A stretch of DNA of 64,000 nucleotides from Bacillota bacterium (GTDB lineage: Bacteria > Bacillota > Clostridia > Oscillospirales > Oscillospiraceae), in the NCBI GenBank assembly GCA_029225225.1, contig JAQXWB010000065.1, positions 253 to 64,252 of the forward strand, read 5' to 3'. Both the position numbers and the translations under genes were made by a program. A model generated the notes under the pieces. That model saw only the letters and a list, made by a program, of their open reading frames with translations, was not told the origin of the DNA and made no database searches. Below, piece after piece: positions 5,451-57,949 of this stretch (positions are counted from its first letter, which is position 1; the number at the start of each line of letters is the position of its first letter).

Positions 5451-5459
5451 GGAGTTATC

Positions 5460-14553: not shown

Positions 14554-15330
14554 TTACATTGCAGCAGGCTCCATGTTTTTGAGCTGTAATTGCAGCTTGT
14601 CCGCAATGAGCGCGATGAATTCCGAATTCGTCGGCTTTCCCTTGGTGTTTGACACCGTGTAGCCGAAGAACCGCTGCAGCGTCTCCAAATCGCCGCGATC
14701 CCATGCGACTTCAATGGCATGGCGGATTGCGCGCTCTACCCGTGAGGGCGTGGTCGCGAAGGTCTTCGCTACCTGCGGGTAGAGAACCTTCGTGATCGCA
14801 TTGATCACATCCATGTTGTTCACCGCGATGATGATCGCCTCGCGCAGGTACTGATAGCCTTTGATGTGCGCGGGTACGCCGATCTCGTGGATCATTGAAG
14901 TGACCATTGCTTCAATGCTTGCCTCTCTGTTGCGCGTGCCGGGGCTGTGCGGGATGAGACTGTCCCGCATCTCATCGAGCCGCTCGAGGACGGCGCGGCA
15001 GGTGCAGGGCTTGAGCAGTACATACTGCACGCCGAGAGATACCAGCAAATTCGACACAAACTCCGTCATAAAATCCGCGAGAACTAACACCGTTGGTTTC
15101 TTGTCCAAGGCGTTTGCCGCTTTGACCACGGCAATCCCATCCGCTTGCGGCAGCATCATGTCTACGACGAGGAACTCCGGTTTTGTCTCCCGCAGAAGCT
15201 CCGTTGCGTGGATTCCGTCGTTTGCCGTTCCGACGACAGCGTACCGGTCGGACTGCTTTAAAACGGCGGCGAGTTTCTTTGTATATTCCTCACTGCTGTT
15301 GGCAAGCAGAACGCGATACATTTTTTCCAT
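14554..15330 (-). CDS. spo0A: Spo0A-family response regulator with atypical receiver domain
   Basis: C-terminal domain is nearly identical to the Spo0A signature ([19 protein letters not shown] ... [15 protein letters not shown] ... KPTNSEFIA). The receiver keeps the phospho-Asp context (LVVDMMLP) and Lys (LLKP). The acidic pair reads LLANSS instead of the usual ADD. Start at MEKMYRV after GGAGGAGGAAGGAGAG. Confidence 0.85.
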
Positions 15331-15381
15331 AAACTCTCCTTCCTCCTCCAATAGAGTTTCCGTGTTCCATACGGTAATAAT

Positions 15382-17503: not shown

Positions 17504-17938
17504 TCAGGGCAGCTTGTCCAGCAGGGCGTCATAGAGCTGCGCCGTCTCGTCAGACAGCGCGTCGGCATAGCCCTCCAGCTCTGCCATATAGCCGTGGAAG
17601 GAAACCGTGTTTTGCGTCTGCCACGCATTTTGCGCCAGTGCCAAAAGCTCGGCAGCCTTTGCGCTGCGTACCGTCGTGTCCAGCTCGGCGCGGAGCTGCT
17701 CGTTTTCGCTGTGCGCCGTCTCCAGCTCGTCTTCCATCTCTTCGATGTTTTCTCGCGCGCCGCTGTTTGCCGCATTCAAATCGTCCTGCATGGTATGTAC
17801 CTTCACCAGCAGCGACAGCGCTACCAGCAAAAAGGCGACCGCAAACATAATGCCTAAGTACTCCAACATAGCGCGCTTCTTTCGGGGGGAGAGCGGCGCC
17901 TCCTCGGTTTCCTTCATCTTTTGCACTTGTTCAGACAT
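17504..17938 (-). CDS. membrane-anchored coiled-coil protein, function unknown
   Basis: 144 aa with one TM (YLGIMFAVAFLLVALSLLV) followed by heptad-like acidic repeats. Its ATG overlaps the parB stop by 8 nt. Confidence 0.55.
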   Translation of the reverse strand: MSEQVQKMKETEEAPLSPRKKRAMLEYLGIMFAVAFLLVALSLLVKVHTMQDDLNAANSGARENIEEMEDELETAHSENEQLRAELDTTVRSAKAAELLALAQNAWQTQNTVSFHGYMAELEGYADALSDETAQLYDALLDKLP

Positions 17939-18812
17939 TTGCTTCCTCCGTGCGCGGCAATGCTAACAGCGCGTCATACAGGCGCTGTAGATCGTCCTCG
18001 CCGTAAAATTCCAACTCAAAACGCCCCTTGCGCTTGCCGCTGACGATTTTGACGCGCCGCCCAAGCTGCTTTGTCAGCATCTTTTCGCACTCGCCGACAT
18101 AATCGACAGCCGGTGCGGGCTTTGCTTTTTGCGGCTTCTCCTCTGCCGCCATGCGCTTGCACATGGCTTCCGCCTGCCGCACGGACAGCCGCAGCGCGAT
18201 GATTTTCTGCGCTGCCGCCTTTTGCAGACGTTCGTTTGGCAGGGACAGTACTGCGCGGGCGTGCCCTGCGGAGAGAGTTCCGTTCTCTACCAGCTCGCGC
18301 ACCTCGTCTGGCAGTGCGAGCAGACGCAGCGCATTTGTGACCGCCGGGCGTGATTTTCCCACCCGCGCCGCCGCCTGCTCCTGCGTCAGACCGTATTCCT
18401 CCATCAAAACGCGGTAGCCCTCCGCCTCTTCCATCGGGTTGAGATCCTGCCGCTGCAAGTTTTCAATGAGCGCAAGCTCCATCACCGTTCTGTCATCCGC
18501 TTCCAGAACGACGACCGGCACTTCCTCCAAACCTGCCATTCGCGCCGCTCGCCAACGGCGTTCACCGGCGATGATCTGATAAAAGCCGCCGTCCAGCGCG
18601 CGCACCGCAAGAGGCTGCAAGATGCCATGCTCCGCGATGGAGTCGGCAAGCGCTTGCAGCTCCGCCTCGTCAAAGCTCCTGCGGGGCTGGTTCGGGTTCG
18701 GCTCGACCTTTTGCAGGGGCAGCGATGTAATTGTATCCGATGCGGGCGCAGCGGAAAAGTCGTCGATCAGTGCGCCGAGACCTTTCCCAAGCCCCCGTTG
18801 CTTTGTTGCCAT
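17931..18812 (-). CDS. parB: chromosome partitioning protein ParB/Spo0J
   Basis: GLGKGLGALI N-terminus, ParB box IIAGERRWRAA, HTH. AGGAGGAA RBS. Confidence 0.9.
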   Translation of the reverse strand: MATKQRGLGKGLGALIDDFSAAPASDTITSLPLQKVEPNPNQPRRSFDEAELQALADSIAEHGILQPLAVRALDGGFYQIIAGERRWRAARMAGLEEVPVVVLEADDRTVMELALIENLQRQDLNPMEEAEGYRVLMEEYGLTQEQAAARVGKSRPAVTNALRLLALPDEVRELVENGTLSAGHARAVLSLPNERLQKAAAQKIIALRLSVRQAEAMCKRMAAEEKPQKAKPAPAVDYVGECEKMLTKQLGRRVKIVSGKRKGRFELEFYGEDDLQRLYDALLALPRTEEANV

Positions 18813-18823
18813 TTTGGTTCCTC

Positions 18824-19597
18824 CTATCGCGCGACCGCCGCGCCGTCCCGCTTCAGAATCTCCTCCGCTACGCTGAGGTATGCGACCGCGCCGCGTGAGC
18901 TTTTGTCATAAGCGGTTACCGGCAGACCGTGACTCGGCGCTTCGGCAAGCCGCACATTCCGCGGAATGACTGCGGCAAACACCTTGCCGGGGAAGTGGCG
19001 GCGCACCTCCTGCGCAACCTGATTTGAAAAATTCGTCCGTCCGTCAAACATCGTCAGCAGCACGCCGAAAATCTCTAACTTCGGGTTCAATCGCCGCTTG
19101 ATGGCGCGAAGGGTAGACATTAAATCGGATAAACCCTCAAGGGCGTAATACTCGCACTGCACGGGGATCAGAATGCTGTCTGCCGCGCACAGCGCGTTGA
19201 GCGTAAGCAGCTCGAGTGACGGCGGACAGTCAATAAAAATATAATCGTAGGCATAGCGCAGCGCGTCGAGCTGTGTTTTCAGCCGATATTCGCGTTTTTC
19301 GAGAGAAATCAATTCCACGGATGCGCCTGCCAGTGCTGCGGTCGAGGGAATGACATCTCCGAAATCCGTCTTGACGACGCATTTTTCAGGCATAACGCCG
19401 CCGATCACCATCTCGTAAGCGCCGTTTGTGACCTGACGCTTTTCAACGCCGAGTCCCGAGGTTGCGTTTGCCTGCGGGTCAAAATCGCACAGCAACACTC
19501 GCGCGCCCGAGGCGGCAAGCGCTGCGGTCAGGTTAACGGCGCTTGTCGTTTTCCCGACACCGCCTTTTTGGTTGACGACCGCGATGATCTTGCCCAT
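18824..19597 (-). CDS. parA: chromosome partitioning ATPase ParA/Soj
   Basis: Deviant Walker A NQKGGVGKTT. Immediately upstream of parB. AAGGAGG RBS. Confidence 0.9.
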   Translation of the reverse strand: MGKIIAVVNQKGGVGKTTSAVNLTAALAASGARVLLCDFDPQANATSGLGVEKRQVTNGAYEMVIGGVMPEKCVVKTDFGDVIPSTAALAGASVELISLEKREYRLKTQLDALRYAYDYIFIDCPPSLELLTLNALCAADSILIPVQCEYYALEGLSDLMSTLRAIKRRLNPKLEIFGVLLTMFDGRTNFSNQVAQEVRRHFPGKVFAAVIPRNVRLAEAPSHGLPVTAYDKSSRGAVAYLSVAEEILKRDGAAVAR

Positions 19598-19696
19598 TGC
19601 GCCGCCTCCTTTTCTTTCTTTTCGCTTCCTTTAATCATAGCACAGTCGAATCGGTTTTGCAACTGTTTCCCCCAAATCAAAAAATAAAAATTCCTA

Positions 19697-19712
19697 TGTT
19701 TCACGTGAAACA
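19697..19712. other. parS: parS centromere-like site 1
   Basis: TGTTTCACGTGAAACA matches the Firmicute parS consensus TGTTNCACGTGAAACA. It is embedded in a perfect 28-bp palindrome (19691-19718), 100 bp upstream of parA. Confidence 0.85.
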
Positions 19713-19727
19713 TAGGAATGGAAAAAA

Positions 19728-20297
19728 TCAGTATTCGCGGATGACCGCGCGGACTTTGCCTAAGATCACCGCCTCACGCCCGTCAATAGGGGAATAGGCG
19801 GGATTCTCCGGCATGAGCCAAACCTCGCCGTTCTTTCGACAGAGCCGCTTCACGGTGGCCTCGTCGCCGAGCAGCGCTACAACGATATCACCGTGGTCTG
19901 CGGTTTGCTGCGCGCGGACAATGACCTTATCTCCGTTCAAAATTCCCGCCTCGATCATCGAATCTCCACGCACCCGAAGCGCGAAACAGCCCTCCTCCGC
20001 GTTCCACGGGAGATATCCTTCGATGTTTTCCACGGCAAGGATCGGCTGACCTGCCGTGACAACGCCGACAATCGGCACACCCTGCGGCGCGGTTACGGAA
20101 ATGGCGCGGTTCTTTGAGCCGTCAACGGATATCTCCCCAAGTCGATCTAATTCGGAGAGATGATAATGCACCGACGCGGTAGAACGCAGCCCGACGGCCT
20201 GCATGATCTCCCGCACCGTCGGGGGATACCCGTTTTGCGCGGTGTATTCTCTTAAATACGCAAGAATTTCCTCCCGCTTTGTGCTTTTGCGTCCCAT
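19728..20297 (-). CDS. lexA: LexA repressor
   Basis: wHTH N-domain (GYPPTVREIMQAVGLRSTASVHYHL), an Ala-Gly cleavage context (VTAGQPI), and S24 peptidase Ser (RVRGDSM) and Lys (ATVKRL). Confidence 0.9.
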   Translation of the reverse strand: MGRKSTKREEILAYLREYTAQNGYPPTVREIMQAVGLRSTASVHYHLSELDRLGEISVDGSKNRAISVTAPQGVPIVGVVTAGQPILAVENIEGYLPWNAEEGCFALRVRGDSMIEAGILNGDKVIVRAQQTADHGDIVVALLGDEATVKRLCRKNGEVWLMPENPAYSPIDGREAVILGKVRAVIREY

Positions 20298-30868: not shown

Positions 30869-31235
30869 TGTAGGGCGGGGACATAATTGTCCTACAAAGC
30901 GTTGATGGGCAACCCTAATTTGTCATTGCAAGACCACTGCGCACACTGGTTGTGGCAATCTCCGGATGTGGGTTTGTATGCAGCTGACAGTTCCTGCACA
31001 AGATTGCCGCGTCGCTGCGCTCCTCGCAATGACAGAAAAGGCTACCCTATTCTGTCATTGCGAGACCAGTGCGCACACTGGTTGTGGCAATCTCCTCCGG
31101 ATGTGGGTTTGTATGCAGCTGACAGTTCCTGCACAAGATTGCCGCGTCGCTGCGCTCCTCACAATGACATATACGGGAAGCTTGTACGCAGTTGATGCTT
31201 CCCTGCACCGTCTGGGACATGTCCCCGACCTACAG
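30869..31235. repeat. Repeat locus R9 (C, two tandem [A2-K-A1rev] units of 132 bp, Crev) between mutS and the CPBP gene
   Basis: Units start at 30921 and 31053. Flanked by TGTAGGGCGGGGACAT... and ...GGGACATGTCCCCGACCTACAG. Orientation is opposite to R1. Confidence 0.9.
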
Positions 31236-31259
31236 AGGATAAAATGAAGGAGATCATGG

Positions 31260-31995: not shown

Positions 31996-34140
31996 ATGCC
32001 AAAAATTCAACAGCTTTCGCCCCATGTGGCGGACCTGATCGCAGCGGGTGAGGTCGTGGACCGTCCCGCAGGCGCGGCAAAGGAGCTGGTCGAAAACGCC
32101 ATTGACGCAGGGGCGAAAAATATTACCGTGGAAATACAAAACGGCGGCATGACCTTCCTGCGGGTGACCGACGACGGCTGCGGTATGAGCGCCGAGGACG
32201 CGCCGACCGCCTTTTTGCGCCACGCGACGAGCAAGCTCCGCGAGGCGAGCGATTTGGAAGCCATTCATACCCTCGGCTTTCGCGGTGAGGCGCTGGCGGC
32301 GATCTCCGCCGTCTCCAGAGTCGATCTGATGACGAAAACCGCCGATGCGGAATTCGGCACGGGGCTGCATTTGGATGCCGGCATCGTGACGGAACAGGGC
32401 GATGTCGGCTGCCCGAACGGGACGACGATCATCGTCCGCGACCTGTTTTATAACACACCCGCGCGCATGAAGTTTATGAAGCGCGACACCGTGGAAGCCT
32501 CGGCGCTTTTGAGCATGGTGCAGCGGCTTGCCCTCGCGCATCCGGAGGTTGCCTTCCGCGTCCTTAGAGACGGGGAAGAGCAGCTTCATACGGCAGGGGA
32601 CGGGCGGCTTTACAGCGCGGTCTATGCCGTGATGGGCAGAACGACCGCACAGGAGATGACCGAGGTGGACAGCCGCTATGAGAAATATGCGCTCACGGGC
32701 TATGTTTCCAAGCCAAACGCCTCCCGCGGCAACCGCAGCAATCAGATATTCTTTGTCAACGGCCGCCATGTGCGCTCAAAGTCCATGACCGCCGCCCTTG
32801 AGGAGGCGTACCGCAACGCGCTGATGGTCGGGCGCTATCCGTCCTGCGTGCTGCATTTGACGATGCCGGAGCATTTGGTCGATGTCAATGTCCATCCCGC
32901 CAAGACCGAGGTGCGGTTTCTGAACGAGCGGGATGTGTTTGACTGCATCCGCTACGGCGTGCAGGGCGCTTTGGAGCGGGCGAGCGGGCGCGTGCCGTTA
33001 CAGCTTCCGCATTCGGAGAAACCGAGGACGCAGACGACTGCCGTACCGAAACAGAATTTTTTCCGCCGGATGAGCGCCGAGGATTACCGCGCCGTCGCCG
33101 CCGTGATGCAGGACAGCGCGAGGGCTGACAAGCTTGCTTATGACACTGTAGGGGCGGATATTATCCGCCCGCGAAGAGTGGAAGGCACCGCTGAAACGGA
33201 GAAGATTGCCACGGCCGCTGCGCAGTCTCGCAATGACAACGTAGGACAGGGACATGTCCCCGCCGGTGCAGAAACTACCGACTGCGTGCAAACCTGTTCA
33301 CCCGTACCGTCTGCCGCTTCGCGGACGGCGGGGACATGTCCCCAGACTACAGTGGGCGATGACACAGTAGGGGCGGATATTATCCGCCCGCGAGATACGG
33401 AGGAAGGCACCGGAACGGACAAGATTGCCACGGCGCAAGCGCCTCGCAATGACGGCGTAGGTTCGAAAGCGCCTGCTGCGGAAGATGATGATGCCTGCAC
33501 CGGCGCGTCAGGGATGCCGCAGGCTACGGCTTCTCAGGAGACGGAAATTCAGCAGGAGCTGCCGTTACAGACGCAGTCTTACCGTGTGGTAGGCGAGGTC
33601 TTGGATACCTATATTATTGTCGAGCAGGACAGACAGGTCTTGCTCATCGACAAGCACGCGGCGCATGAGCGGATCCTTTTTGAAAAGCTCCGCAGAAGCA
33701 GCGAACCCATCATGTCGCAGCTTCTGCTGGAACCGATTTTATGTCAGCCGGAGCGCGAGGAGGCGGCGATTCTGATCGAAAACGCTGCGCTTCTGAATGA
33801 ATGCGGCTTTGAGGTCAGCGACTACGGCGACGGGACGCTTGCCGTGCGCCGCGTTCCCGCAGAGCTGGATCCTGCCGACGCGGAGAGCGCGCTCAATCAG
33901 CTCTCAAGCGATCTCCTGAGCGGCAAGCGCACCGATCCTGCCGCGCTGCGCGACACGATGCTGCACACGGTGGCGTGCAAAGCCGCGATCAAGGGCGGCA
34001 GGCACACCGACGCCCGTGAGCGGGAGTCCTTGGTCAAGCAGGTGCTCTCCGACCCGTCGCTCAAATACTGCCCGCACGGCAGACCGATTGTTGCCGTGCT
34101 GACCGCTTCACAGTTGGAGCGGAGCTTTAAGAGGGCATGA
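31996..34140 (+). CDS. mutL: DNA mismatch repair protein MutL (linker carries repeat-derived sequence)
   Basis: GHKL N-domain (IAAGEVVDRPAGAAKELVENAIDAGA) and C-terminal dimerisation domain (LIDKHAAHERILFE). 714 aa. Residues about 384-488 are encoded by repeat locus R10. Confidence 0.9.
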   Translation: MPKIQQLSPHVADLIAAGEVVDRPAGAAKELVENAIDAGAKNITVEIQNGGMTFLRVTDDGCGMSAEDAPTAFLRHATSKLREASDLEAIHTLGFRGEALAAISAVSRVDLMTKTADAEFGTGLHLDAGIVTEQGDVGCPNGTTIIVRDLFYNTPARMKFMKRDTVEASALLSMVQRLALAHPEVAFRVLRDGEEQLHTAGDGRLYSAVYAVMGRTTAQEMTEVDSRYEKYALTGYVSKPNASRGNRSNQIFFVNGRHVRSKSMTAALEEAYRNALMVGRYPSCVLHLTMPEHLVDVNVHPAKTEVRFLNERDVFDCIRYGVQGALERASGRVPLQLPHSEKPRTQTTAVPKQNFFRRMSAEDYRAVAAVMQDSARADKLAYDTVGADIIRPRRVEGTAETEKIATAAAQSRNDNVGQGHVPAGAETTDCVQTCSPVPSAASRTAGTCPQTTVGDDTVGADIIRPRDTEEGTGTDKIATAQAPRNDGVGSKAPAAEDDDACTGASGMPQATASQETEIQQELPLQTQSYRVVGEVLDTYIIVEQDRQVLLIDKHAAHERILFEKLRRSSEPIMSQLLLEPILCQPEREEAAILIENAALLNECGFEVSDYGDGTLAVRRVPAELDPADAESALNQLSSDLLSGKRTDPAALRDTMLHTVACKAAIKGGRHTDARERESLVKQVLSDPSLKYCPHGRPIVAVLTASQLERSFKRA
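33146..33459. repeat. Repeat locus R10, inside the mutL coding sequence
   Basis: CTGTAGGGGCGGATATTATCCGCCC occurs twice (33146, 33365). AGATTGCCACGGCCGCTGCGCAGTCTCGCAATGAC. GTAGGACAGGGACATGTCCCCGCC-Krev-...GGCGGGGACATGTCCCCAGACTACAG. AGATTGCCACGGCGCAAGCGCCTCGCAATGAC, which is identical to units at 54791 and 54915. Confidence 0.85.
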
Positions 34141-35070: not shown

Positions 35071-35364
35071 CTGTAGACAGGGGCATGTCCCCGCCTACAG
35101 AATCGTGCGAAGCACACCGCAGTCATTCACCCTTCGCCCTTCGCCTAATAGATTGCCACGTCGCTGCGCTCCTAGCAATGACACAATAGGGTGACCCATT
35201 TGTCATTGCGAGACCGGTGCGCACACTACCCGCAAGGGGTACGCCACATCCGTAACGCTCGTTCCTCGCGAACGGCTGCGCAGTGGTCGTGGTAATCTCC
35301 GGTTGCAGCTCGGTACGCACTTGGTAGTTCCTACACCGGCTTAGGACGTGTCCCCGGCCTACAG
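35071..35364. repeat. Repeat locus R11 (C palindrome, H fragment, A1rev, A2+D, K, Crev)
   Basis: CTGTAGACAGGGGCATGTCCCCGCCTACAG ... AGATTGCCACGTCGCTGCGCTCCTAGCAATGACA ... TGTCATTGCGAGACCGGTGCGCACACTACCCGCAAGGGG... ...TTGGTAGTTCCTACACCGGCTTAGGACGTGTCCCCGGCCTACAG. Confidence 0.85.
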
Positions 35365-35469
35365 GGGCAAAAATTATTTCATGGTTTCCGACTGGAGATT
35401 CGGGAATTCGACAAGGACAAGCCATTACAATAGGAGTATCCCAAAAATAAGAAAAGAGGTACTCAAAAA

Positions 35470-35691
35470 ATGGCAAACACAGAAAATTTGCAGGATCTGA
35501 TCTTAAACGAGGTACGCAAGGAGCATATTCCGGTGACGATGTTCCTGATGAACGGCTTTCAGATGAAAGGCATCATCACGGGCTTTGACAGCTTTATCGT
35601 CGTCTTGAGCTCTGAGGGCAAACAGCAGATGATCTACAAGCACGCGATCTCCACACTTGTGCCGCTGCAGCCCGTGCGTGTCCCGCTGTAA
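35470..35691 (+). CDS. hfq: RNA chaperone Hfq
   Basis: Sm1/Sm2 motifs: [25 protein letters not shown] ... [10 protein letters not shown]. Confidence 0.9.
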
Positions 35692-39121: not shown

Positions 39122-39169
39122 CGGTAGCCGCAGCCGCGGGGCTGTGCTGACGTCCAAAACCGAATAGCA

Positions 39170-39410
39170 TGATGCGTCGATGGGGACGAGTAGCCCGTTT
39201 GCCGCGTACAGAGAGCTGTCGTTTGGTGCGAGACAGCCGCGGTGCCGTGTGAATATCACCCCGTAGCACCCTGCCCGAATGCAGTAGGGCGGGACGGCTT
39301 GCGCCCGTTACCGCGCACGAAAGTGTCCTTTCCGCAGGCGGAGAGGGAACAAGAGTGGTACCGCAGAGCACGTCTCTGTCTCTTGATGAGACAGAGACGT
39401 TTCTTATTTT
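39170..39410 (+). promoter_or_regulatory. T-box riboswitch leader (Ile specifier) for ileS
   Basis: Stem I elements (GAGTAG, AGAGA, UGGUGCGAG distal loop). Specifier-loop GAATATCAcc carries the AUC Ile codon plus A at 39255-39258. T-box sequence AGAGTGGTACCGCAG lies at 39351-39365. Terminator CGTCTCTGTCTC-ttgat-GAGACAGAGACG plus TTCTTATTTT spans 39371-39410. Confidence 0.75.
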
Positions 39411-39433: not shown

Positions 39434-39551
39434 GTAGGGGCGGCTATCAGCCGCCCGCAATTCAAATCCGTGCGAAGCACACCACAGTCATTCACTTTTA
39501 GTTCTTAGCCCAAATCGGTTCCTACACCGGGCGGCTGATAGCTGCCCCTAC
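39434..39551. repeat. Repeat locus R12 (B ... Brev) between the T-box terminator and the ileS start
   Basis: GTAGGGGCGGCTATCAGCCGCCC ... GTGCGAAGCACACCACAGTCATTCAC ... GGGCGGCTGATAGCTGCCCCTAC. Confidence 0.85.
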
Positions 39552-39610
39552 GCCGTTTGAATGTGTTGGGCGTATCATATGCAAGAAAATCAATTCTCAT
39601 GGAGGATTTT

Positions 39611-42406
39611 ATGGATTACAAGAACACCATCATCACACCGAAAACCGATTTTCCCATGCGCGCGGGGCTGCCCACGCGGGAGCCGCCGATGCTGGAGCAT
39701 TGGAACAAGATCGACGTCTATTCCCTTTTGCTCGAAAAGAACAAGGGTAAGCCTGCTTTTATCCTGCATGACGGGCCTCCCTTCTCCAACGGCGATATCC
39801 ACATGGGGCACGCACTCAACAAGACCTTGAAGGATTTCATCGTCCGCTCCTACGCCATGCGCGGCTACTATACGCCGTTCACGCCCGGCTGGGACAACCA
39901 CGGCATGCCCATCGAGTCCGCGATCATCAAGAAGAACAAGCTCAACCACAAGACCATGCCCGTGACGGAGTTCCGCTCCGCATGCGAAGCCTTTGCCGAG
40001 GACTTTATTCAGCGGCAGATGGCGGGCTTCCGCCGTTTGGGCGTCTTGGGCGATTGGGAGCATCCCTACCGCACGATGGACAAGCACTTTGAAGCCGAAG
40101 AAGTTAAGGTATTCGGCGAGATGTACCGCAAGGGCTACATCTACAAGGGCTTGAAGCCCGTTTACTGGTGCCCGAAGGACGAGACGGCGCTTGCCGAGGC
40201 GGAGATCGAGTATCAGGACGATCCCTGCACCTCCATCTATGTCAAGTTCGCCCTCAAGGACACGCAGGGCAAAATGAACACCGAAAACACCTACGTCGTC
40301 ATCTGGACGACCACGCCGTGGACGCTGCCCGGCAACCTCGCCATTGCTTTGAACGCCAACGAGAGCTATGTCCTCGTGGACGCGAAAAACGGCGAACGCT
40401 ATATCGTTGCGGAGGCGCTGCTGGAAAAGACGATGAAAGCAGGCGGCATCGCGGAATATGAAATTTTAGAGCGTCACGAGGGCAAATTCTTCGAGTATAT
40501 GACCGCGCAGCACCCCTTCTTGGAGCGCGATTCCCTGCTTGTCTGCGCGGACTATGTCACAATGGACTCCGGCACGGGCTGCGTCCACACCGCCCCCGGC
40601 TTCGGCGCGGATGACTATCAGACCTGCCGCCGCTACAAGATCGACCTCATCGTCCCCGTGGACGACAGAGGCTATCAGACCGCAGACGCGGGCAAGTACG
40701 CGGGGATGCGCTATGATGTCTCCAACGAGCAGATCGTCACCGATTTGAAGGAATCGGGCGCGCTGTTTGCTTCCGAGGTTTTCACCCACAGCTATCCGCA
40801 CTGCTGGCGCTGCAAGAGCCCGATCATCTTCCGCGCCACGCCGCAGTGGTTCTGCTCGGTCGAGTCCTTCAAGGATGAGGCGGTCGCCGCGTGCGAAAAG
40901 GTCCAATGGCTGCCCGCGTGGGGCAAGGATCGCATGGTTGCCATGATCCGCGACCGCGCCGACTGGTGCATTTCGCGTCAGCGCCGCTGGGGTCTGCCGA
41001 TCCCCGTGTTCTACTGCAAGGACTGCGGCAAGCCCGTCTGCACGCCTGAGACGATTGATCATATCTCCAAGCTCTTCGACGAGAACGGCTCGAACATCTG
41101 GTTCGCCAAGGAAGCGATGGAGCTGGTTCCCGAGGGACTGACCTGCCCGCACTGCGGCGGCAAAGCCTTTGAGAAAGAGACGGACACCCTCGACGGTTGG
41201 TTCGACTCCGGTTCGACGCACATCGCCTCCCTGCGCCGAGAGCATCCCGACCTGTGGCCGGCGACGATGTACCTTGAGGGCGCGGATCAGTACCGCGGCT
41301 GGTTCCAGTCGAGCCTGCTGACGAGCGTCGGCGCACTCGGACAGGGCGCACCCTTTACCAAGTGCCTCACCCACGGCTGGACGGTGGACGGCGAGGGCAA
41401 GGCGATGCATAAATCCCTCGGCAACGGCGTCGATCCCGCCGACCTGATCCGCGATTTCGGCGCGGACATCGTGCGTCTGTGGGCGGCGTCGGCGGATTAC
41501 CGTGCGGACGTGCGCTGCTCCAAGGAGATTTTCAAGCAGCTCTCGCAGAACTATCTGAAATTCCGCAACACCGCGCGCTACTGCCTCGGCAACCTCGACG
41601 GCTTCGACGCGAATCATCTTGTAAAGCCGGAGGAAATGCTCGAGCTTGACCGCTGGGCGATGACGAAGCTGAACGGACTGATCCGCACCGCGTTTGAAGC
41701 CTATGACAACTACGAATTCCATGTTCTGACCCACGCGATCAACGATTTCTGCGTGGTGGAGCTGTCGAATTTCTACCTCGACATTCTCAAAGACCGCCTC
41801 TACTGCGAGGCGAAGGACGGTCTGAAGCGCCGCAGTGCCCAGACCGCGCTGTTCCTGATCGTGGACGCGATGGCGAAGATGTTCGCGCCCATCCTGCCCT
41901 TCACCTGCGACGAGATCTGGCAGGCGATGCCGCACCGCGAGGGCGACGACACGCGCAACATCGTCCTCAACGAGATGGCAAAGCCCTATGACGAATATGC
42001 GCTCAGCGAAGCGGAGATGGCGAAGTGGGACACCCTCATCGCCCTTCGCAGCGACGTCAACGGCGTTCTGGAGACGGCCCGCGCCGATAAGCGCATCGGC
42101 AAGGCGCTCGAAGCGCATGTCGCCCTGTATCCGACGGATGACGCCGCAAAGACCTGCCTCGAAGCGGTCAGGGAGATGAATCTTGCGGAGCTGTTCATCG
42201 TCTCGGACGTGCTGCTCGAGGGCGAGAAGCCGCAGGAAGCAAGCGTCTGCGCGCACGGGGAGAACTTCTCCGGCATGCTGATCGAGGTTCGTAACGCCGA
42301 GGGCGTCAAGTGCCCGCGCTGCTGGATGCACTCGACCAAGGCGAACGAGGAAGGACTCTGCCCGCGCTGCGCGGCAGTCATTGCGGAGATGGATCTCGGC
42401 GCATAA
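39611..42406 (+). CDS. ileS: isoleucine--tRNA ligase
   Basis: HIGH-type motif (GDIHMGHALNK), KMSKS-type (GKAMHKSLGN), and two C-terminal CxxC zinc motifs. ATG 39611 follows GGAGGA. Preceded by a T-box leader with an AUC specifier. Confidence 0.95.
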   Translation: MDYKNTIITPKTDFPMRAGLPTREPPMLEHWNKIDVYSLLLEKNKGKPAFILHDGPPFSNGDIHMGHALNKTLKDFIVRSYAMRGYYTPFTPGWDNHGMPIESAIIKKNKLNHKTMPVTEFRSACEAFAEDFIQRQMAGFRRLGVLGDWEHPYRTMDKHFEAEEVKVFGEMYRKGYIYKGLKPVYWCPKDETALAEAEIEYQDDPCTSIYVKFALKDTQGKMNTENTYVVIWTTTPWTLPGNLAIALNANESYVLVDAKNGERYIVAEALLEKTMKAGGIAEYEILERHEGKFFEYMTAQHPFLERDSLLVCADYVTMDSGTGCVHTAPGFGADDYQTCRRYKIDLIVPVDDRGYQTADAGKYAGMRYDVSNEQIVTDLKESGALFASEVFTHSYPHCWRCKSPIIFRATPQWFCSVESFKDEAVAACEKVQWLPAWGKDRMVAMIRDRADWCISRQRRWGLPIPVFYCKDCGKPVCTPETIDHISKLFDENGSNIWFAKEAMELVPEGLTCPHCGGKAFEKETDTLDGWFDSGSTHIASLRREHPDLWPATMYLEGADQYRGWFQSSLLTSVGALGQGAPFTKCLTHGWTVDGEGKAMHKSLGNGVDPADLIRDFGADIVRLWAASADYRADVRCSKEIFKQLSQNYLKFRNTARYCLGNLDGFDANHLVKPEEMLELDRWAMTKLNGLIRTAFEAYDNYEFHVLTHAINDFCVVELSNFYLDILKDRLYCEAKDGLKRRSAQTALFLIVDAMAKMFAPILPFTCDEIWQAMPHREGDDTRNIVLNEMAKPYDEYALSEAEMAKWDTLIALRSDVNGVLETARADKRIGKALEAHVALYPTDDAAKTCLEAVREMNLAELFIVSDVLLEGEKPQEASVCAHGENFSGMLIEVRNAEGVKCPRCWMHSTKANEEGLCPRCAAVIAEMDLGA

Positions 42407-47577: not shown

Positions 47578-47826
47578 GCAGTGAATAGAGAATAGTGAAT
47601 GGTGAATAGGTCGCCGCAGCGGCTTTTTCCGTTGCTTACAGCTTATTACGCGCTTGGTAGTTTCCGCCGACAGATTTTCAATCCGCGCGGAGCGCTCCGA
47701 CACTGTTCACTGTTCACTATTCATCATTCACTATTCACTGAAGCCCTGCAAAGGCGCGTCAGGGATGCCGCGCGCTACAGATTCTAAAAAGGTGCCTGCA
47801 CGCGAGCGGCTGATAGCAGCCCCTAC
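47578..47826. repeat. Repeat locus R14 (inverted H arrays, then Brev)
   Basis: GCAGTGAATAGAGAATAGTGAATGGTGAATAGG ... CACTGTTCACTGTTCACTATTCATCATTCACTATTCACTG ... GCGGCTGATAGCAGCCCCTAC. Confidence 0.8.
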
Positions 47827-47886: not shown

Positions 47887-50022
47887 TTACATATCGAAGG
47901 GTTCCATGCTGAGGACGGGGTGACCGACCTCGCTCAGGAAGGCGAGCAGCTGCTCGGGATCCTCGGTGCAGATCGTTTCATCGGCGATCATGTCGGTGAA
48001 GTTATCGACATCGTACAGCTCCTTTGCCGTCGCGTCGAGCTTCTCGCGCATCTGCTCCTTCAGATCCTTCGGCAGCCAGACGATTCTGCCGGGACCGCCT
48101 TCGGCAGCGATGAACTTCTTCGAAGCGATGAAGTGCTTACCGTGACCCATGAAGCCCGGGGTCTGCACGCCGCCGCCGGTCATGGAAGCCATCTCGGAGA
48201 AGGTCATGCCCAGCGGAGTCATGCCGGTATGCTCGCGGGTGGTGATGACAACGCCCATGGAGCAAGGCTCGACGCCGCAGATACACTCGAAGCAGCCGCA
48301 GGAGGTCATCGGGTCTTGGAACAGGGAGTAGAGTGTGACATGCTCCAAAGCGCCGTGAGAGTACTTATTGACTGCCTCGTCAACGTCCTCATAGGCACCG
48401 AGGCGCTCGTCAACGCACTTCTCCTTCGTGACAACTTGGCACGGACCCTGCGGATCCAGCTCGTTGGTCGCCTTCGCGTCCAGCCACGAGACAGCGCCGC
48501 ACAGACCGAGACGCTCGGGGGTGACGATGCAGACGTGGCTCGGGGAGAACGCCTGACACATGATACAGGAATAGAACACGGGCACGGACTCGTCGGTCAT
48601 GGAGGACAGACGCTCGTCGCGCTTGTCAAAGATCTCGTTCGCGGCGGCACGGAGCGCCTTGTTCGGCTCGTCGCCGACGACGATGCGGACTTGGCACTTG
48701 TCCACGACCGTGTCAAACTCGCTCTTGATCTTGGCGTAGAGGACTTCGCCGATGTGCTTGAAGCGGAAGCCCGCCTCGTAGTCCGCCTTGCTCACGCGGA
48801 TGCGGATCATGTCGCGCTGACCGGTGTGCATGACGCCCTCGACGCAGTTGAGGAACTGGTGGATCTTACGCTCGAAGACCGGCTCGAAGTCGGGCTGCAT
48901 CGCCTTGCCCGCGACCTCGACGGTGTAGGACAGGGAGATCTTGCTGCCGACGGGAATCTCGTCCATCTCGGGGCCTTCGACGATGATCTTGTGATCCTCG
49001 ATCTCGGAGGCCTCCTTGGTGACGACCAGCTCGAAGCAGTCCTTGCGGGAGCCGTCAACCTCGACCTGCATATCGCCCTTGCGGATGATCTCGCCCTCGA
49101 AGGCAGAGGAGAAGGAGACGGGAATGTCGATGTTCGTAACCTTGAGCTTGATGCCGCGCGCCTCAATGGAGGTTTCGATCCAGTCGCGGGTATTCTCGTT
49201 GATGATGAGGGACTTCGGAACCGCCCACATATCATTGGTGTCGTTGGTGATGACGGGGAAGCCCATCTTGATGGCGCCTGCGCCGCAAGCGACGACGATA
49301 TCGCTCACGGGGGCGTAAGCGTTGACCATTGCGTTGATGCGGTCGAAGGTGTAGCGATGGAAGCCGTTGGCGTCGCCGGGCTGGATGGCGCCGAAGATGA
49401 ACGCCGCACGGACGACGAGGGAGATGATATGTCCGACCGCCCAGATGTCGTTGCCGACCGGCACGACGCGAACGCCGAAGTTCATTTTGTAGTCCTTCTC
49501 AACGAGCTGGTCAATGATGCCGCCGATGAGGAAGACGAAGATGCCGCGGGACTGATAGCCCTTGACGGTCTCGACGGCTTCTTCCGCCGAGGGAGCTGCG
49601 CCGATCATAACGACGAAGCCGGGAATGTCGCCCGTGACGAGCGGGACGCCAAGCTCACGAACCTCTGCGTCCGTGAAGTGGCCGTGGTAGACGGTGTCTG
49701 CGTAAGGCTCGGCGCTGCGGGCGTACTTGCAAGCCTCAATGACCTCGGCGGCAATGGCGGTGCCGATGCCGGAGGAGAAGATGGAGGCGGTGCGGTTTTC
49801 GCGCGTCATCATCGCGCGGATGTCGGTCATTGCAGCCTTCAGCTCGCCGAGGGTGGTGACCTTCTTGCCGATGTAAGCGTAGATGCAGGCGAGGTAGTAA
49901 GCGGTCGAGGGCATGGTCAGGGGAGCGGCTTCGCCCAGCTCCGCGATGACAGCGTCCAGCTCCGCTTCCGCCTTGCCGAGCATTTCGTCGGAGCCGCGGA
50001 ATACGCGTTCAAAAAGTGCCAT
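47887..50022 (-). CDS. acsB: acetyl-CoA synthase (CODH/ACS complex, A-cluster subunit)
   Basis: 711 aa, colinear with Moorella-type AcsB as I recall it. Carries FYSCIMCQAFSPSHVCIVTPERLGLCGAVSWLDAKA and the A-cluster motif MTSCGCFEC. Confidence 0.9.
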   Translation of the reverse strand: MALFERVFRGSDEMLGKAEAELDAVIAELGEAAPLTMPSTAYYLACIYAYIGKKVTTLGELKAAMTDIRAMMTRENRTASIFSSGIGTAIAAEVIEACKYARSAEPYADTVYHGHFTDAEVRELGVPLVTGDIPGFVVMIGAAPSAEEAVETVKGYQSRGIFVFLIGGIIDQLVEKDYKMNFGVRVVPVGNDIWAVGHIISLVVRAAFIFGAIQPGDANGFHRYTFDRINAMVNAYAPVSDIVVACGAGAIKMGFPVITNDTNDMWAVPKSLIINENTRDWIETSIEARGIKLKVTNIDIPVSFSSAFEGEIIRKGDMQVEVDGSRKDCFELVVTKEASEIEDHKIIVEGPEMDEIPVGSKISLSYTVEVAGKAMQPDFEPVFERKIHQFLNCVEGVMHTGQRDMIRIRVSKADYEAGFRFKHIGEVLYAKIKSEFDTVVDKCQVRIVVGDEPNKALRAAANEIFDKRDERLSSMTDESVPVFYSCIMCQAFSPSHVCIVTPERLGLCGAVSWLDAKATNELDPQGPCQVVTKEKCVDERLGAYEDVDEAVNKYSHGALEHVTLYSLFQDPMTSCGCFECICGVEPCSMGVVITTREHTGMTPLGMTFSEMASMTGGGVQTPGFMGHGKHFIASKKFIAAEGGPGRIVWLPKDLKEQMREKLDATAKELYDVDNFTDMIADETICTEDPEQLLAFLSEVGHPVLSMEPFDM

Positions 50023-50058
50023 TATCGTTTCATCCTTTCAGATCTGTTTTAGGAAAAG

Positions 50059-50197
50059 GGGGTAGCCTCTTTGTCATTGCGAGACCGGTGCGCACACCGG
50101 TCGTGGCAATCTGTGGCTGTAGATTTGTAAGCGCTTGGTAGTGCCGGCACGAGATTGCCGCGTCGCTGCGCTCCTCGCAATGACATGGGAGGGTAGC
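50059..50197. repeat. Repeat locus R15 (A2 - degenerate K - A1rev) between cooC and acsB
   Basis: TGTCATTGCGAGACCGGTGCGCACACCGGTCGTGGCAATCT...GAGATTGCCGCGTCGCTGCGCTCCTCGCAATGACA. Confidence 0.9.
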
Positions 50198-50222
50198 TTG
50201 CCGTGACAATCCAAAACGCAAA

Positions 50223-50987
50223 TTACATTGCGTCTAATTTGGCTTTGATTGCGCGGATCTCTTCCAGCGCGGTGGGGGAGCAGTCGTAGGGGGACAAGCC
50301 CTTGCGGTCGGCGTCGATGACCTCGGCGTTATAGCTGACAAAGCCGAGCAGGTCTTCTTCCGGGATGCGCGCGCGGATAAATTCGCGGTCGGAATCGTCG
50401 CGGATCTTATTGGCGACCACGCGCACCTTGGTGATGCCGATGTCGCGGGCGAGCTGCTTGATGCGGGTGTAGGTCTGCACGGAGCGCGCGCCCGGCTCGA
50501 GCACGACGATGAACTGATCCATGCAGCTTGCCGTGCCGCGTCCGAGGTGCTCCAAGCCCGCCTCCATGTCCATGATGACCACATCGTCCTTGCGGAAGAC
50601 GAGGCTGGACAGGATCGCCTTGAGCATCACATGCTCGGGACAGACGCAGCCGCTGCCGCCCACATCCACCGTGCCCATGACGAGCAGCTTCACGCCGTTG
50701 ATCTCGCGGGAGAGCTTGTCGGGCAGGTCGGAGACTTCGGGGTTGAGCTTATAGAAGGTGTTGCTGTCGTTCGCGCCGGTGCGCTCCTTGGCAAGCTGCT
50801 TCATCTTCGACACGGGGACGATGGAGTTGACCTCCTCCTCCGTCATGCCGAGCGCTAAGCCCAAGTTGGCATCCGGATCGACGTCGGCAGCCAAGACCTG
50901 CCTGCCCTCGTCGGCGTACAGCCTTGCGAGCGTGGCGGCAAGGGTGGTCTTTCCGACGCCGCCCTTGCCCGTGATGGCGACCTTCAT
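50223..50987 (-). CDS. cooC: CODH/ACS nickel-insertion accessory ATPase CooC/AcsF
   Basis: P-loop GKGGVGKTT and the CxC metal motif (GSGCVCPEH). Confidence 0.85.
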   Translation of the reverse strand: MKVAITGKGGVGKTTLAATLARLYADEGRQVLAADVDPDANLGLALGMTEEEVNSIVPVSKMKQLAKERTGANDSNTFYKLNPEVSDLPDKLSREINGVKLLVMGTVDVGGSGCVCPEHVMLKAILSSLVFRKDDVVIMDMEAGLEHLGRGTASCMDQFIVVLEPGARSVQTYTRIKQLARDIGITKVRVVANKIRDDSDREFIRARIPEEDLLGFVSYNAEVIDADRKGLSPYDCSPTALEEIRAIKAKLDAM

Positions 50988-50988
50988 A

Positions 50989-52887
50989 TCAGATGCCCAA
51001 AGCGGCGCGCTTCTGCTCGATGCGCTCGATCATCAAATCGCCGAGTTTGTCAATGTCCAGCTCGACGGTGTAGTTCGCTTCGACCCAGTCCTTCACGCCG
51101 TGCTCGCCCTGCAGCAGGGCAGTGACTTCCTCGCTGCCCTTGGTGTAAGGATCAACGCCGAGGAAGGTGTCAATGCCGGTAGCGACGACGTAGTTGCCGA
51201 TGGAGACGGCCTTTTCGCTCATCCACTCCGGCGCGCAGCCGACGACGGGAACCTGAGAAATGTTGACGCCCCAGTCCTTCGCAATGTCGGAGGCGAGGAT
51301 CATCATACGGGAGATATCAACGCAGGAGCCCATGTGCAGCACGGGCGGAATATCGACCAGCTCACAGACGCGCTTCAGGCCCTCGCCGCAAAGCTCCTTG
51401 GCTTCCTTGTCCATCAGACCTGCCTTGGCAGCCGCCTGTGCGGAGCAGCCGGAGACGATGAGGATGATGTCGTTCTTGATGAGCTTCTTCATCAGTTCAA
51501 TGTGCGCGGTATCGGGGCGCACTTTGGGGTTGTTGCAGCCGACCATCGCCACGGCGCCGCGCAGAACGCCGGACTTGACCACATCCACGAGAGGCTTGGT
51601 CGTGCCGGTGACATCGACATGGCTGTTCGTCACGCCGTCGAGGCAGCCCTTGATCGCTTCAACGGAGTAGCCGACGGTCGCCTTGGTCTTGAGCTGCGGG
51701 ATGTTGACCATGCTCTGGTCGCGGTTCTTAAAGTTCTCGATTGCCATCTTCACGATTGCCTTGGCGTTCTCGCCCGCGTTTTCGGAGCTGAAGCGGATGA
51801 ACTCGGAGTCCGGCATCCGCGCAATCGGAGAGGTGGTGATGAATTTCGTATGGAAGCACTTGGACAGGGGTCCGAGTGCGGGGAAGATGCACTGCACGTC
51901 AACGACGATGGCTTCGCAAGCGCCCGTGAGGACGACGTTCTCCTGCGAGAGGAAGTTGCCTGCCATCGGGATGCCGTGGCGCATGGCGACCTCGTTGGAG
52001 GTGCAGCAGACACCGGCGATGTTGATGCCCTTTGCGCCCATGGACTTGGCATAGGCGATCATCTCGGGGTCGTTGGCGTAGAAGACGATCATCTCCGACA
52101 GGGAGGGGTCATGACCGTGGACGATGATATTGACCATGTCCTTTTCCATGACGCCGATGTTGGCGCTGGTGTCCACGGGCTTCGGCGTGCCGAACAGGAC
52201 ATCGGAGAACTCCGTGCCCATCATCGAGCCGCCCCAGCCGTCGGACAGGCCTGCGCGCAGGGACTGACGGATCAGCGCTTCGGGCAGGGACGAGCAGCCC
52301 ATGTGGGTCATGTGCAGCGACTGCGAAACCTCGCGGTCAATGGCGCGGGGAGCAATCTCCGCCTTTTCCCACAGCTCCTGCGTATGCTCGGGTGCACGCT
52401 TCAGGAAGCGCTGCGTGCCGAAGGGCTTGCCGTATTCCATCAGGCCGGTCTCGGCGACCTCGTGCGCAAGGTCGTAAATGTCCCTGCCCTCGGTCTCGAT
52501 GCCCCATTCCGTGGCGATGCGCTTCAGCTTTTCGGGATCCTTGACGGTGTAGTTGCCGCCCTCGCGGGTCTGGTAAAGGGTGTGGCAGATTTCGCGGCCG
52601 TGGTCGGAGTGCGTTGCCGCGCCGCCTGCGGTGAAGCGCAGGTAGTTACGGGCGACGATACCGTGGACGTCGCAGCCGCAGATGCCTCTCGGCGCCTTCG
52701 GGGTGATGCGGCACGGGCCCATCGAGCAGATACGGCAGCAGGTGCCCGCTTCGCCGAAGCCGCAGTGCGGCGTCTGGTTCTTCACGCGCTGCTGCCAGCT
52801 GTCCGCGCCGACCTTCTTGCCGTTTTCCAGAAGAGAGGCGGTTGCTTCCTCCATCTGTTCGACCGTGATGTAGCGTTCTTGGCTCAT
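50989..52887 (-). CDS. cooS: anaerobic carbon-monoxide dehydrogenase catalytic subunit
   Basis: N-terminal Fe-S cysteines HCGFGEAGTCCRICSMGPCRI, 632 aa. ATG 52887 follows AGGAGGAA (track ORF extended to 52947). Confidence 0.9.
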   Translation of the reverse strand: MSQERYITVEQMEEATASLLENGKKVGADSWQQRVKNQTPHCGFGEAGTCCRICSMGPCRITPKAPRGICGCDVHGIVARNYLRFTAGGAATHSDHGREICHTLYQTREGGNYTVKDPEKLKRIATEWGIETEGRDIYDLAHEVAETGLMEYGKPFGTQRFLKRAPEHTQELWEKAEIAPRAIDREVSQSLHMTHMGCSSLPEALIRQSLRAGLSDGWGGSMMGTEFSDVLFGTPKPVDTSANIGVMEKDMVNIIVHGHDPSLSEMIVFYANDPEMIAYAKSMGAKGINIAGVCCTSNEVAMRHGIPMAGNFLSQENVVLTGACEAIVVDVQCIFPALGPLSKCFHTKFITTSPIARMPDSEFIRFSSENAGENAKAIVKMAIENFKNRDQSMVNIPQLKTKATVGYSVEAIKGCLDGVTNSHVDVTGTTKPLVDVVKSGVLRGAVAMVGCNNPKVRPDTAHIELMKKLIKNDIILIVSGCSAQAAAKAGLMDKEAKELCGEGLKRVCELVDIPPVLHMGSCVDISRMMILASDIAKDWGVNISQVPVVGCAPEWMSEKAVSIGNYVVATGIDTFLGVDPYTKGSEEVTALLQGEHGVKDWVEANYTVELDIDKLGDLMIERIEQKRAALGI

Positions 52888-53025
52888 AGTAGATTCATTC
52901 CTCCTGTTTTGTTTTGAGGCACAAAAAATGCACGATGCGAAAGGCACCGTTATATGAAAGCGCTTTCCGCCCCGCCGGGGACGACACGCTTTCGAATGGG
53001 CAATACGCCCAAATTAACCGATATG

Positions 53026-53208: not shown

Positions 53209-53379
53209 GTAGTGAATAGAAAGCGGAAAATCGTTCACTGCTTGGAGTTTGTATATGCTTTGTAGGGCGGGGACATGCCCCCGCCGTCCGCGAAGCGGCA
53301 GACGGTACAGACGAACGAGTTTGTACGTACTTGGTAGTTCCTACACGCGGCGGGGACATGTCCCCGCCCTACAGAATAG
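53209..53379. repeat. Repeat locus R16 (H - C - K - Crev)
   Basis: GTAGTGAATAG...TGTAGGGCGGGGACATGCCCCCGCCGTCCGCGAAGCGGCAGACGGTACAGACG...TTTGTACGTACTTGGTAGTTCCTACACGCGGCGGGGACATGTCCCCGCCCTACAG. Confidence 0.9.
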
Positions 53380-54704: not shown

Positions 54705-55064
54705 ATAATTCCTGTACCGGCACGCCGTGCCGCGCGAGCGACAAGAGGTAAAAGTAAACAGGGTTGAACACAGTTGGTAGCTCCTGCACGAGATTGCCAC
54801 GGCGCAAGCGCCTCGCAATGACACAGAGGGCAGCCTTTTCGTGTCATTGCGAGGAGCGCAGCGACGTGGCAATCTCCGGTTGCTAACTTGTACGCAGTTG
54901 GTCGTTCCTGCACAAGATTGCCACGGCGCAAGCGCCTCGCAATGACACGGAGGGCAGCCTTTTCGTGTCATTGCGAGGAGCGCAGCGACGCGGCAATCTC
55001 CGGTTCCTAACTTGTACGCAGTCAGTCGTTCCTGCACCGGCGGGGACATGTCCCCACCCTACAG
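54705..55064. repeat. Repeat locus R17 (K, two tandem [A3rev-A1-K] units of 124 bp, Crev)
   Basis: AGATTGCCACGGCGCAAGCGCCTCGCAATGACA at 54791 and 54915, each followed by TGTCATTGCGAGGAGCGCAGCGACGyGGCAATCT. Ends with GGCGGGGACATGTCCCCACCCTACAG. Confidence 0.9.
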
Positions 55065-55076
55065 AGGAGATATAGG

Positions 55077-57528: not shown

Positions 57529-57904
57529 CTGTAGTACGGGGATATGTCCCCGCCGTCCGCGAATCGGCAGACGGTACAGACGCACAGGTTTGTACGCGGT
57601 TGGTAGTTCCTGCACGGGATTGCCGCGTCGCTGCGCTCCTCGCAATGACATAATTGGCTACCCTATCTGTCATTGCGAAACCAGTGCGCACACTGGTCGT
57701 GGCAATCTTGTGCCGTTGGTAGTATGCAGTCGGTAGTTCCTGCACGGGATTGCCGCGTCGCTGCGCTCCTCGCAATGACATAATAGGCTACCCTATCTGT
57801 CATTGCGAGACCAGTGCGCACACTGGTCGTGGCAATCTTGTGCCGTTGGGTAGTATGCAGTCGGTAGTTCCTTCACCGGCTTAGGACATGTCCCCACCCT
57901 ACAG
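57529..57904. repeat. Repeat locus R18 (C, K, two tandem [A1rev-A2-K] units of 130-131 bp, Crev)
   Basis: GGTAGTTCC junctions at 57602, 57732 and 57863. Flanked by CTGTAGTACGGGGATATGTCCCCGCC and GGACATGTCCCCACCCTACAG. Confidence 0.9.
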
Positions 57905-57949
57905 AGTCAGTATAACATATTTTGCCGTCGAAGTCTGTTAAGAAAATAT

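Follow-up and report, generated by a model that had tools for sequence, protein, structure and literature searches.

The question raised by this locus is how a DNA mismatch repair (MMR) protein, MutL, comes to be encoded in part by intergenic-type repeats, and whether these repeats do anything for the protein that carries them. The mutL gene lies in a 64,000-nucleotide (64-kb) stretch of contig JAQXWB010000065.1 (assembly GCA_029225225.1, positions 253 to 64,252), here called the window, and its 714-aa open reading frame (ORF) is approximately 100% identical to a protein from a metagenome-assembled genome of Faecousia sp. (Oscillospiraceae). The product carries the Pfam domains HATPase_c_3, DNA_mis_repair and MutL_C, and DKHAAHERILFE, ACKAAIK, CPHGRP and SFKRA are present in its translation and invariant among relatives in the ortholog alignment. 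With a GHKL ATPase, DNA_mis_repair and MutL_C domains and these motifs, it is a MutL of the endonuclease type; we take DKHAAHERILFE, ACK, CPHGRP and FKR to be the published MutL endonuclease motifs. Our data indicate that repeats resembling GTAG-tagged repetitive extragenic palindromes (REP), REP doublets forming hairpins (REPIN) and bacterial interspersed mosaic elements (BIME) probably colonised the disordered linker of this protein and were then reshuffled in place, the encoded peptide being essentially a passenger spacer.

The repeat-derived stretch of mutL spans 33148-33527 (approximately 380 bp, residues 385-511). The initial annotation had recognised repeats in the part encoding residues 384-488 of the intact 714-aa ORF, with two GTAG hairpins, a central element and two A-arms, one of them identical to copies elsewhere in the window. 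All of these modules are found where it placed them, but the repeat-derived sequence does not stop there and continues to about 33527, ending in a decayed hairpin of a third type (33502-33527). Its description of hairpins and A-arms is kept with one amendment, namely that the flanking units are composites of a hairpin, a 32-nt spacer and an A-arm. All blocks of the linker open with GTA-GG (Val-Gly) in phase 0, with ATGAC-NNN before each, and the four occurrences of ATGAC-NNN-GTAGG in the window are all in the mutL linker. A pair of direct repeats (33140-33215 and 33359-33434) is spaced 219 bp (73 codons) apart, and the second hairpin copy (33367-33389) is preceded by CAG, not CTG. The hairpin units consist of GTAG with GGGCGGAT/ATCCGCCC, the ends of the central element of GTAGG with GCGGGGACATGTCCCCGC, and the tail of GCGCG..CGCGC with CTAC. 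The arms of the central element (33249-65 and 33326-42) are 17 nt long and perfectly complementary. As single-stranded DNA, 33241-33350 is predicted to fold into one long hairpin (dG -28.6 kcal/mol, z -4.3), and for the intergenic copy at 53264-53375 the predicted values are -37.2 kcal/mol and -6.8. The central element has no stop codons in three of the six frames, and both frames that are used naturally are among these. A promoter and terminator scan found no promoter or terminator-like site inside the insert, and Rfam gave no known RNA family in the mutL repeat region.

The same repeats are frequent elsewhere in the window. Merging them gave 27 repeat intervals in 64 kb, of which only three are in mutL (33148-33170, 33241-33453 and 33496-33530); the rest are intergenic, and of two apparent overlaps with ORFs, one concerns an upstream region and the other an ORF antisense to TrkH. 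The hairpin GTAGGGGCGGATATTATCCGCCC occurs at 33148-33170 and 33367-33389 and has relatives with 3 mismatches at 2007, 10154, 39434 and 43112, where 0 are expected by chance, and the arm motif GGCGGGGACATGTCCCC occurs 21 times (0.01 expected). Intergenic copies at 2033-2109, 53269-53364 and 57529-57615 share 86-90% identity with the central element, and intergenic 2034-2108 translates to AGTTDCVQTCSPVSSAASRTAGTCP, as the initial annotation had quoted. Intact copies of the third, tail-type hairpin are intergenic at 47753 of the window and at 2763 and 3165 of a related locus (L005). No second real gene carrying a repeat copy was found in the window or in the related loci that were fetched. The long composite arrays at 30870-31240, 35072-35365, 54760-55065 and 57530-57905 hold nested A-arm inverted repeats, and composite arrays yield ORFs of 93-117 aa that are spurious, among them 30887-31195, 30966-31247 and 35123-35476. 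An exhaustive HMMER search with the linker peptide against 1.84 billion representative proteins gave 16 matches (P0148-P0163), all of 84-204 aa, and the best 10 of these 16 had no Pfam domain. Their likely source is spurious reading of intergenic repeat arrays, which would make them contaminants of the database. Each 50%-identity cluster has a single representative in this protein library, and insert-bearing proteins can hide behind ones free of the insert. The 132-aa linker peptide was uninformative as the query of a word-indexed protein search, which gave one match and missed even the MutLs. In a metagenome scan, the 20-nt terminal palindrome had 19 matches, three of them from the real family.

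Comparison with orthologs indicates that the repeats were inserted in frame into the interdomain linker, as the initial annotation had proposed. The distance between the anchors FFR..SAEDY and RVVGEV is 181 residues in the window MutL and 71-107 in repeat-free Oscillospiraceae orthologs, and no repeat-free ortholog with an equally long linker of similar sequence was found. In an AlphaFold model, residues 375-526 have a predicted local distance difference test score (pLDDT) of approximately 27-33 and no secondary structure, and the insert is predicted to be intrinsically disordered. The flanking domains were modelled better; with a mean pLDDT of 57 from a 32-sequence alignment the model as a whole is poor, and only this contrast between linker and domains was used. 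Against the closest species (L001), the linker has a ratio of nonsynonymous to synonymous substitution rates (dN/dS) of 0.65, compared with 0.03 in the N-terminal and 0.07 in the C-terminal domain. Purifying selection on the ATPase and endonuclease domains is strong (dN/dS 0.02-0.09). By these substitution rates, mutL appears to be selected as a working MutL in which the part encoded by repeats is nearly unconstrained. The constraint on the domains, the intact motifs and the lack of a terminator-like site in the insert agree with a MutL that stays functional, and the insert in the linker may be close to neutral.

The main new finding, missed by the initial annotation, is that the architecture of the linker is hypervariable both between and within species. 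Modules were annotated in 120 orthologs and placed on a tree built on the residues outside the linker. Proteins with 80% or more identity to the window MutL have total lengths of 626-714 aa and show at least 10 module architectures between them. The reading frame is kept in all full-length relatives, and linker lengths range over 88-175 residues between near-identical strains. In one near-identical group the DNA of the N-terminal domain is 99.4-99.7% identical, yet the linkers differ: P0016 has one 90-bp unit of hairpin and A-arm, P0012 has two in tandem, and in P0013, an architecture present on 85 contigs, the upstream part is swapped for a tail-type hairpin and a central element. The central core is oriented opposite to the window in L002 and L003. 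L106 (P0005) and L002 (P0007) have gene flanks that are 97.8-99% identical, and between identical palindromic ends their central cores run in opposite directions. Once one core is flipped, the two are identical at 49 of 61 positions (approximately 80%), so that the event was replacement by a different copy of the family and not a simple inversion. A flip of the central element in situ was ruled out by the same comparison with flanks that are 98-99% identical. Such a replacement may have occurred by ectopic conversion or by re-insertion through palindromic arms that are neutral to orientation. Further out, the central element is reversed in a clade at 71% identity, and more distant clades have no module at all. 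The linkers of L004 and L005, which belong to the 71%-identity clade (P0023-P0033), contain further peptide modules such as GHAPDLLNQRLCQRGQSPLANRLDSATPFCSLHPPQAALANVPD beside the central element in reverse orientation, and these may be another repeat family at the same site. One of the relatives, L054 (CAVFYN010000168.1), is titled 'Bacteroidaceae bacterium', but its MutL is of the Oscillospiraceae type and 68% identical to the query, which is likely an error of binning or labelling.

The colonisation and reshuffling that we consider probable may have proceeded in several steps. Repeats that are very dense in this Faecousia lineage would insert, perhaps mobilised by a RAYT-type Y1 transposase (RAYT, REP-associated tyrosine transposase), into the linker that joins the ATPase domain to the endonuclease domain. 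As this linker is tolerant of changes in length and sequence, insertions that are in frame and free of stop codons would survive selection. Unequal recombination between the ATGAC-NNN-GTAGG junctions and between the 90-bp units would then alter the copy number, and ectopic gene conversion or re-insertion via the palindromic ends would swap blocks in either orientation. MutL would remain functional throughout, with the repeat-encoded peptide mostly a passenger spacer. Several points weigh against this reading. No RAYT or other transposase is present among the approximately 50 genes of the window. The insert would be neutral on this reading, yet the dN/dS of the linker is below 1 and the length of the linker is known to influence roadblock bypass by MutL. 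The composite of hairpin, 32-nt spacer and A-arm was seen in mutL linkers only, which means that part of the region may be a local duplication and not a fresh insertion; the composite had no match in the JGI metagenome scan, a collection largely without this lineage. The survey of orthologs was biased towards intact proteins, and all sequences are short-read metagenome assemblies, some of which are demonstrably broken by the repeats.

Changes of the linker might instead be adaptive, selected for clamp reach, cavity size or a binding motif, and they might thus tune repair or anti-recombination. The E. coli MutL linker of 100 aa is disordered, and deletion of 40% of it gives no mutator phenotype, whereas the bypass of roadblocks in vitro is lost (PMC6902014). 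On these grounds the length of the linker may have a quantitative effect. The eukaryotic MLH1 linkers hold functional motifs, and a linker dN/dS short of 1 and the stability of the 181-aa architecture over eight assemblies would also agree with selection. Such exaptation is nevertheless unlikely, since no peptide is conserved across architectures and either strand of the element can be translated at the same position. The modules also match non-coding intergenic copies, in a region predicted to be fully disordered. A bolder form, to which we give little credence, is that the MutL linker is a preferred and self-reinforcing target. Hairpin-forming, REPIN-like elements would here accumulate in this linker and remodel it, in a protein that itself polices recombination and mismatches of the hairpin or loop kind, and the strain-specific lengths (88-175 residues) would tune repair, anti-recombination and the spread of the elements themselves. 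If this were true, the repeats would act as a rheostat of genome stability in gut Clostridia.

The initial annotation had further suggested that a palindromic repeat in mutL could be a hotspot for deletion or frameshift acting as a mutator switch, in which frequent and reversible changes toggle MutL and modulate the mutation rate. There are precedents elsewhere for repeats or mobile elements in or beside MMR genes that act as switches. In Salmonella mutL, a change in the copy number of small tandem repeats converts functional and defective alleles into each other (PMC2955026), and the SpyCIM1 island at mutL of Streptococcus pyogenes and an element in Vibrio mutS control MMR genes (PMC8875331). 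The linker of this MutL is also structurally unstable on strain timescales. Our data do not support a switch, and nothing found shows the insert working as one. All variants seen are in frame. The three block lengths (93, 126 and 90 bp) are all divisible by 3, as is the distance of 219 bp between the direct repeats, so that slippage, unequal crossing-over and repeat-mediated deletion or duplication would leave the frame intact. Alternating functional and defective alleles were not found among the variants examined at the assembly level. The changes are confined to a type of linker that tolerates a large deletion in E. coli, unlike the conversion between functional and defective alleles in Salmonella, and the catalytic domains are under purifying selection. 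The MutL fragments of 191-220 aa in the same 90% cluster all start just past the linker. In those of which the contigs were fetched (191-208 aa), the cause is a 100-N scaffold gap in the linker or a contig end, with no frameshift, and truncated alleles were thereby rejected as evidence of switching. Taken together, a contingency locus is very improbable here.

A purely local origin, by tandem duplication of native linker sequence with only secondary resemblance to intergenic repeats, would suit the mutL-specific composite flank unit and the clean 90-bp tandem duplication, but it is highly improbable since there are many independent intergenic copies of each of the hairpin, A-arm, central element and tail hairpin, and distant orthologs lack them all. 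That short-read assemblers spliced intergenic repeats into mutL is almost certainly wrong: some ENA scaffolds are gapped exactly in the linker and one contig is chimeric, but eight independent assemblies of this lineage with distinct single-nucleotide polymorphisms all have the 181-residue linker, the P0013 architecture recurs on many contigs, the modules (110 bp or less) are below typical read length, and the frame is kept in every case. The gapped ENA scaffolds are L082-L085, with 100-N gaps in the mutL linker. Their gene calls give a C-terminal fragment of 191-208 aa and an antisense ORF of 212-403 aa over the N-terminal domain (two in L084, of 212 and 128 aa). P0127 (755 aa, on a 3.9-kb NCBI contig) has an identical repeat linker and ends that both come from a different organism or gene; it is probably chimeric.

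The features of the locus are collected in Table 1. The order of genes around mutL is mutS, a gene for an Rce1-like protein, mutL, miaA and hfq. Judged by Pfam only, the window also holds yidC/jag, parB/parA (origin-proximal type), spo0A, lexA and a carbon monoxide dehydrogenase/acetyl-CoA synthase (CODH/ACS) cluster of the Wood-Ljungdahl type, at 4281-6413, 14554-15351, 17931-20297 and 47887-52947. A T-box leader (Rfam RF00230, 118 bits) at 39168-39386 is upstream of a class-I tRNA synthetase gene (39557-42406), and a copy of the GTAG hairpin (39434-39456) is placed between the T-box and the start codon of the synthetase.

Table 1. Coordinates of mutL, its repeat-derived modules and the neighbouring repeat arrays in the window
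Feature	Position	Strand	Description
mutL coding sequence, 714 aa	31996-34140	+	intact ORF; GHKL ATPase N-terminal domain, repeat-built linker, endonuclease/dimerisation C-terminal domain
ATGAC-NNN-GTAGG junctions, four	33140, 33233, 33359, 33449 (33140..33461)	+	13 nt
Block 1, 93 bp	33148-33240	+	GTAG hairpin, 32-nt spacer and A-arm; residues 385-415
GTAG hairpin H1	33148-33170	+	GTAG, 8-bp stem and 3-nt loop; opens block 1
A-arm variant 1 (AGATTGCC...CGCAATGAC)	33203-33237	+	closes block 1; A-arm family of the intergenic composite arrays
Block 2, 126 bp	33241-33366	+	110-bp element with inverted-repeat ends, plus 16 nt; residues 416-457
Central REPIN-like element	33241-33352	+	two GTAG-tagged palindromic ends, inverted, flanking a core of about 62 nt
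Block 3, 90 bp	33367-33456	+	second unit of hairpin, spacer and A-arm; residues 458-487
GTAG hairpin H2	33367-33389	+	opens block 3
A-arm 2	33422-33453	+	identical to intergenic copies 54791-54822 and 54915-54946
Tail block	33457-33527	+	GTAGG at start; decayed third hairpin type at end, 33502-33527, GGCGCGTCAGGGATGCCGC..CTAC
Composite repeat array, same family	30870-31240		intergenic, between mutS and the Rce1-like gene, upstream of mutL
Composite repeat array, same family	35072-35365		intergenic, between miaA and hfq, downstream of mutL

The locus adds mismatch repair, and gut Clostridia that are abundant and uncultured, to the range of selfish repeats of the GTAG-REP/REPIN type that are turned into translated protein. 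It also offers a natural experiment on how much foreign and strain-variable sequence the MutL linker can absorb. If the linker variants differ in function, mobile repeats would be tied to variation of mutation or recombination rate within gut species. On the practical side, the repeats interrupt assemblies within an essential marker gene, create spurious proteins in databases and make the length of MutL misleading as a character.

Among known systems, the GTAG-tagged REPs have GTAG beside a stem of 5-10 bp, pair in inverted orientation and form mosaic clusters (PMC3733652). The repeats described here have a terminal GTAG directly beside a short stem-loop, a high copy number and a mostly intergenic location. 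REPs of the GTAG/CGTC type that lie in frame within genes are in excess in replication and repair genes (uvrA, uvrD, polA, recBCD, dnaE2 and ligase), and clusters of intragenic REPs encode 43-82 aa (Di Nocera et al. 2013, PMC3733652). The insert in mutL is similar to these in its GTAG and stem-loop, in pairs of opposite orientation, in the minority of copies that are in frame and in a repair gene as target. It differs in the host, an Oscillospiraceae gut anaerobe, in the target mutL, in a larger size (approximately 105-127 aa), in its mosaic of at least three hairpin types and A-arms, and in an architecture that varies between strains; the main text of that study does not mention mutL, mutS, Firmicutes or Clostridia. 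REPINs are inverted REP doublets that form one long hairpin (Bertels & Rainey, PMC3337134), and the central element, with two inverted REPs predicted to fold into one hairpin, is alike in this respect to the elements of the REPIN-RAYT and BIME systems (PMC3337134; Ton-Hoang et al., PMC3333891). The intergenic arrays of the window are mosaic like BIMEs. REPINs are by definition extragenic and known mainly from Proteobacteria, whereas the central element of mutL sits in a gene. The defining partner of a REPIN-RAYT system is a cognate single-copy RAYT gene (a Y1 HUH transposase) with the same REPs on its flanks, and none lies in the 64-kb window. Group 1 RAYTs occur in Clostridia (PMC5581495). 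With respect to miniature inverted-repeat transposable elements (MITE), which are defined by terminal inverted repeats and target-site duplications, the central element has the terminal inverted repeats CTGTAGG...CCTACAG; inspection of the sequence around the intergenic copies showed no consistent duplication, and the junctions in mutL are ATGAC-NNN-GTAGG. The palindromic elements of Rickettsia (RPE), which Ogata et al. described in 2000 and PMC10969869 summarises, are dispersed palindromic repeats in frame in housekeeping genes and tolerated by the protein, as is the insert in mutL. Each genome has dozens of genes with an RPE, and the encoded peptide is conserved, whereas mutL is the only real gene found here and the element is read from either strand. 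The linker-peptide search, with its sensitivity limited by the representative library, gave short ORFs only. The tandem-repeat switches of Salmonella and E. coli mutL (PMC2955026) resemble the present case in that copy number changes within mutL by slippage or unequal recombination; here the units are of 90 bp and lie in a disordered linker, and no defective allele was found. SpyCIM1 and the Vibrio mutS element (PMC8875331) are likewise mobile DNA physically tied to MMR genes, but these islands are large, can be excised and either block or drive transcription, whereas the repeats in this linker are small, non-autonomous and translated into protein. In-frame GTAG REPs in repair genes and RPEs are thus already known, and what is new is the host among the Clostridia, mutL as the target, the size of the insert, its mosaic make-up and its variability between strains.

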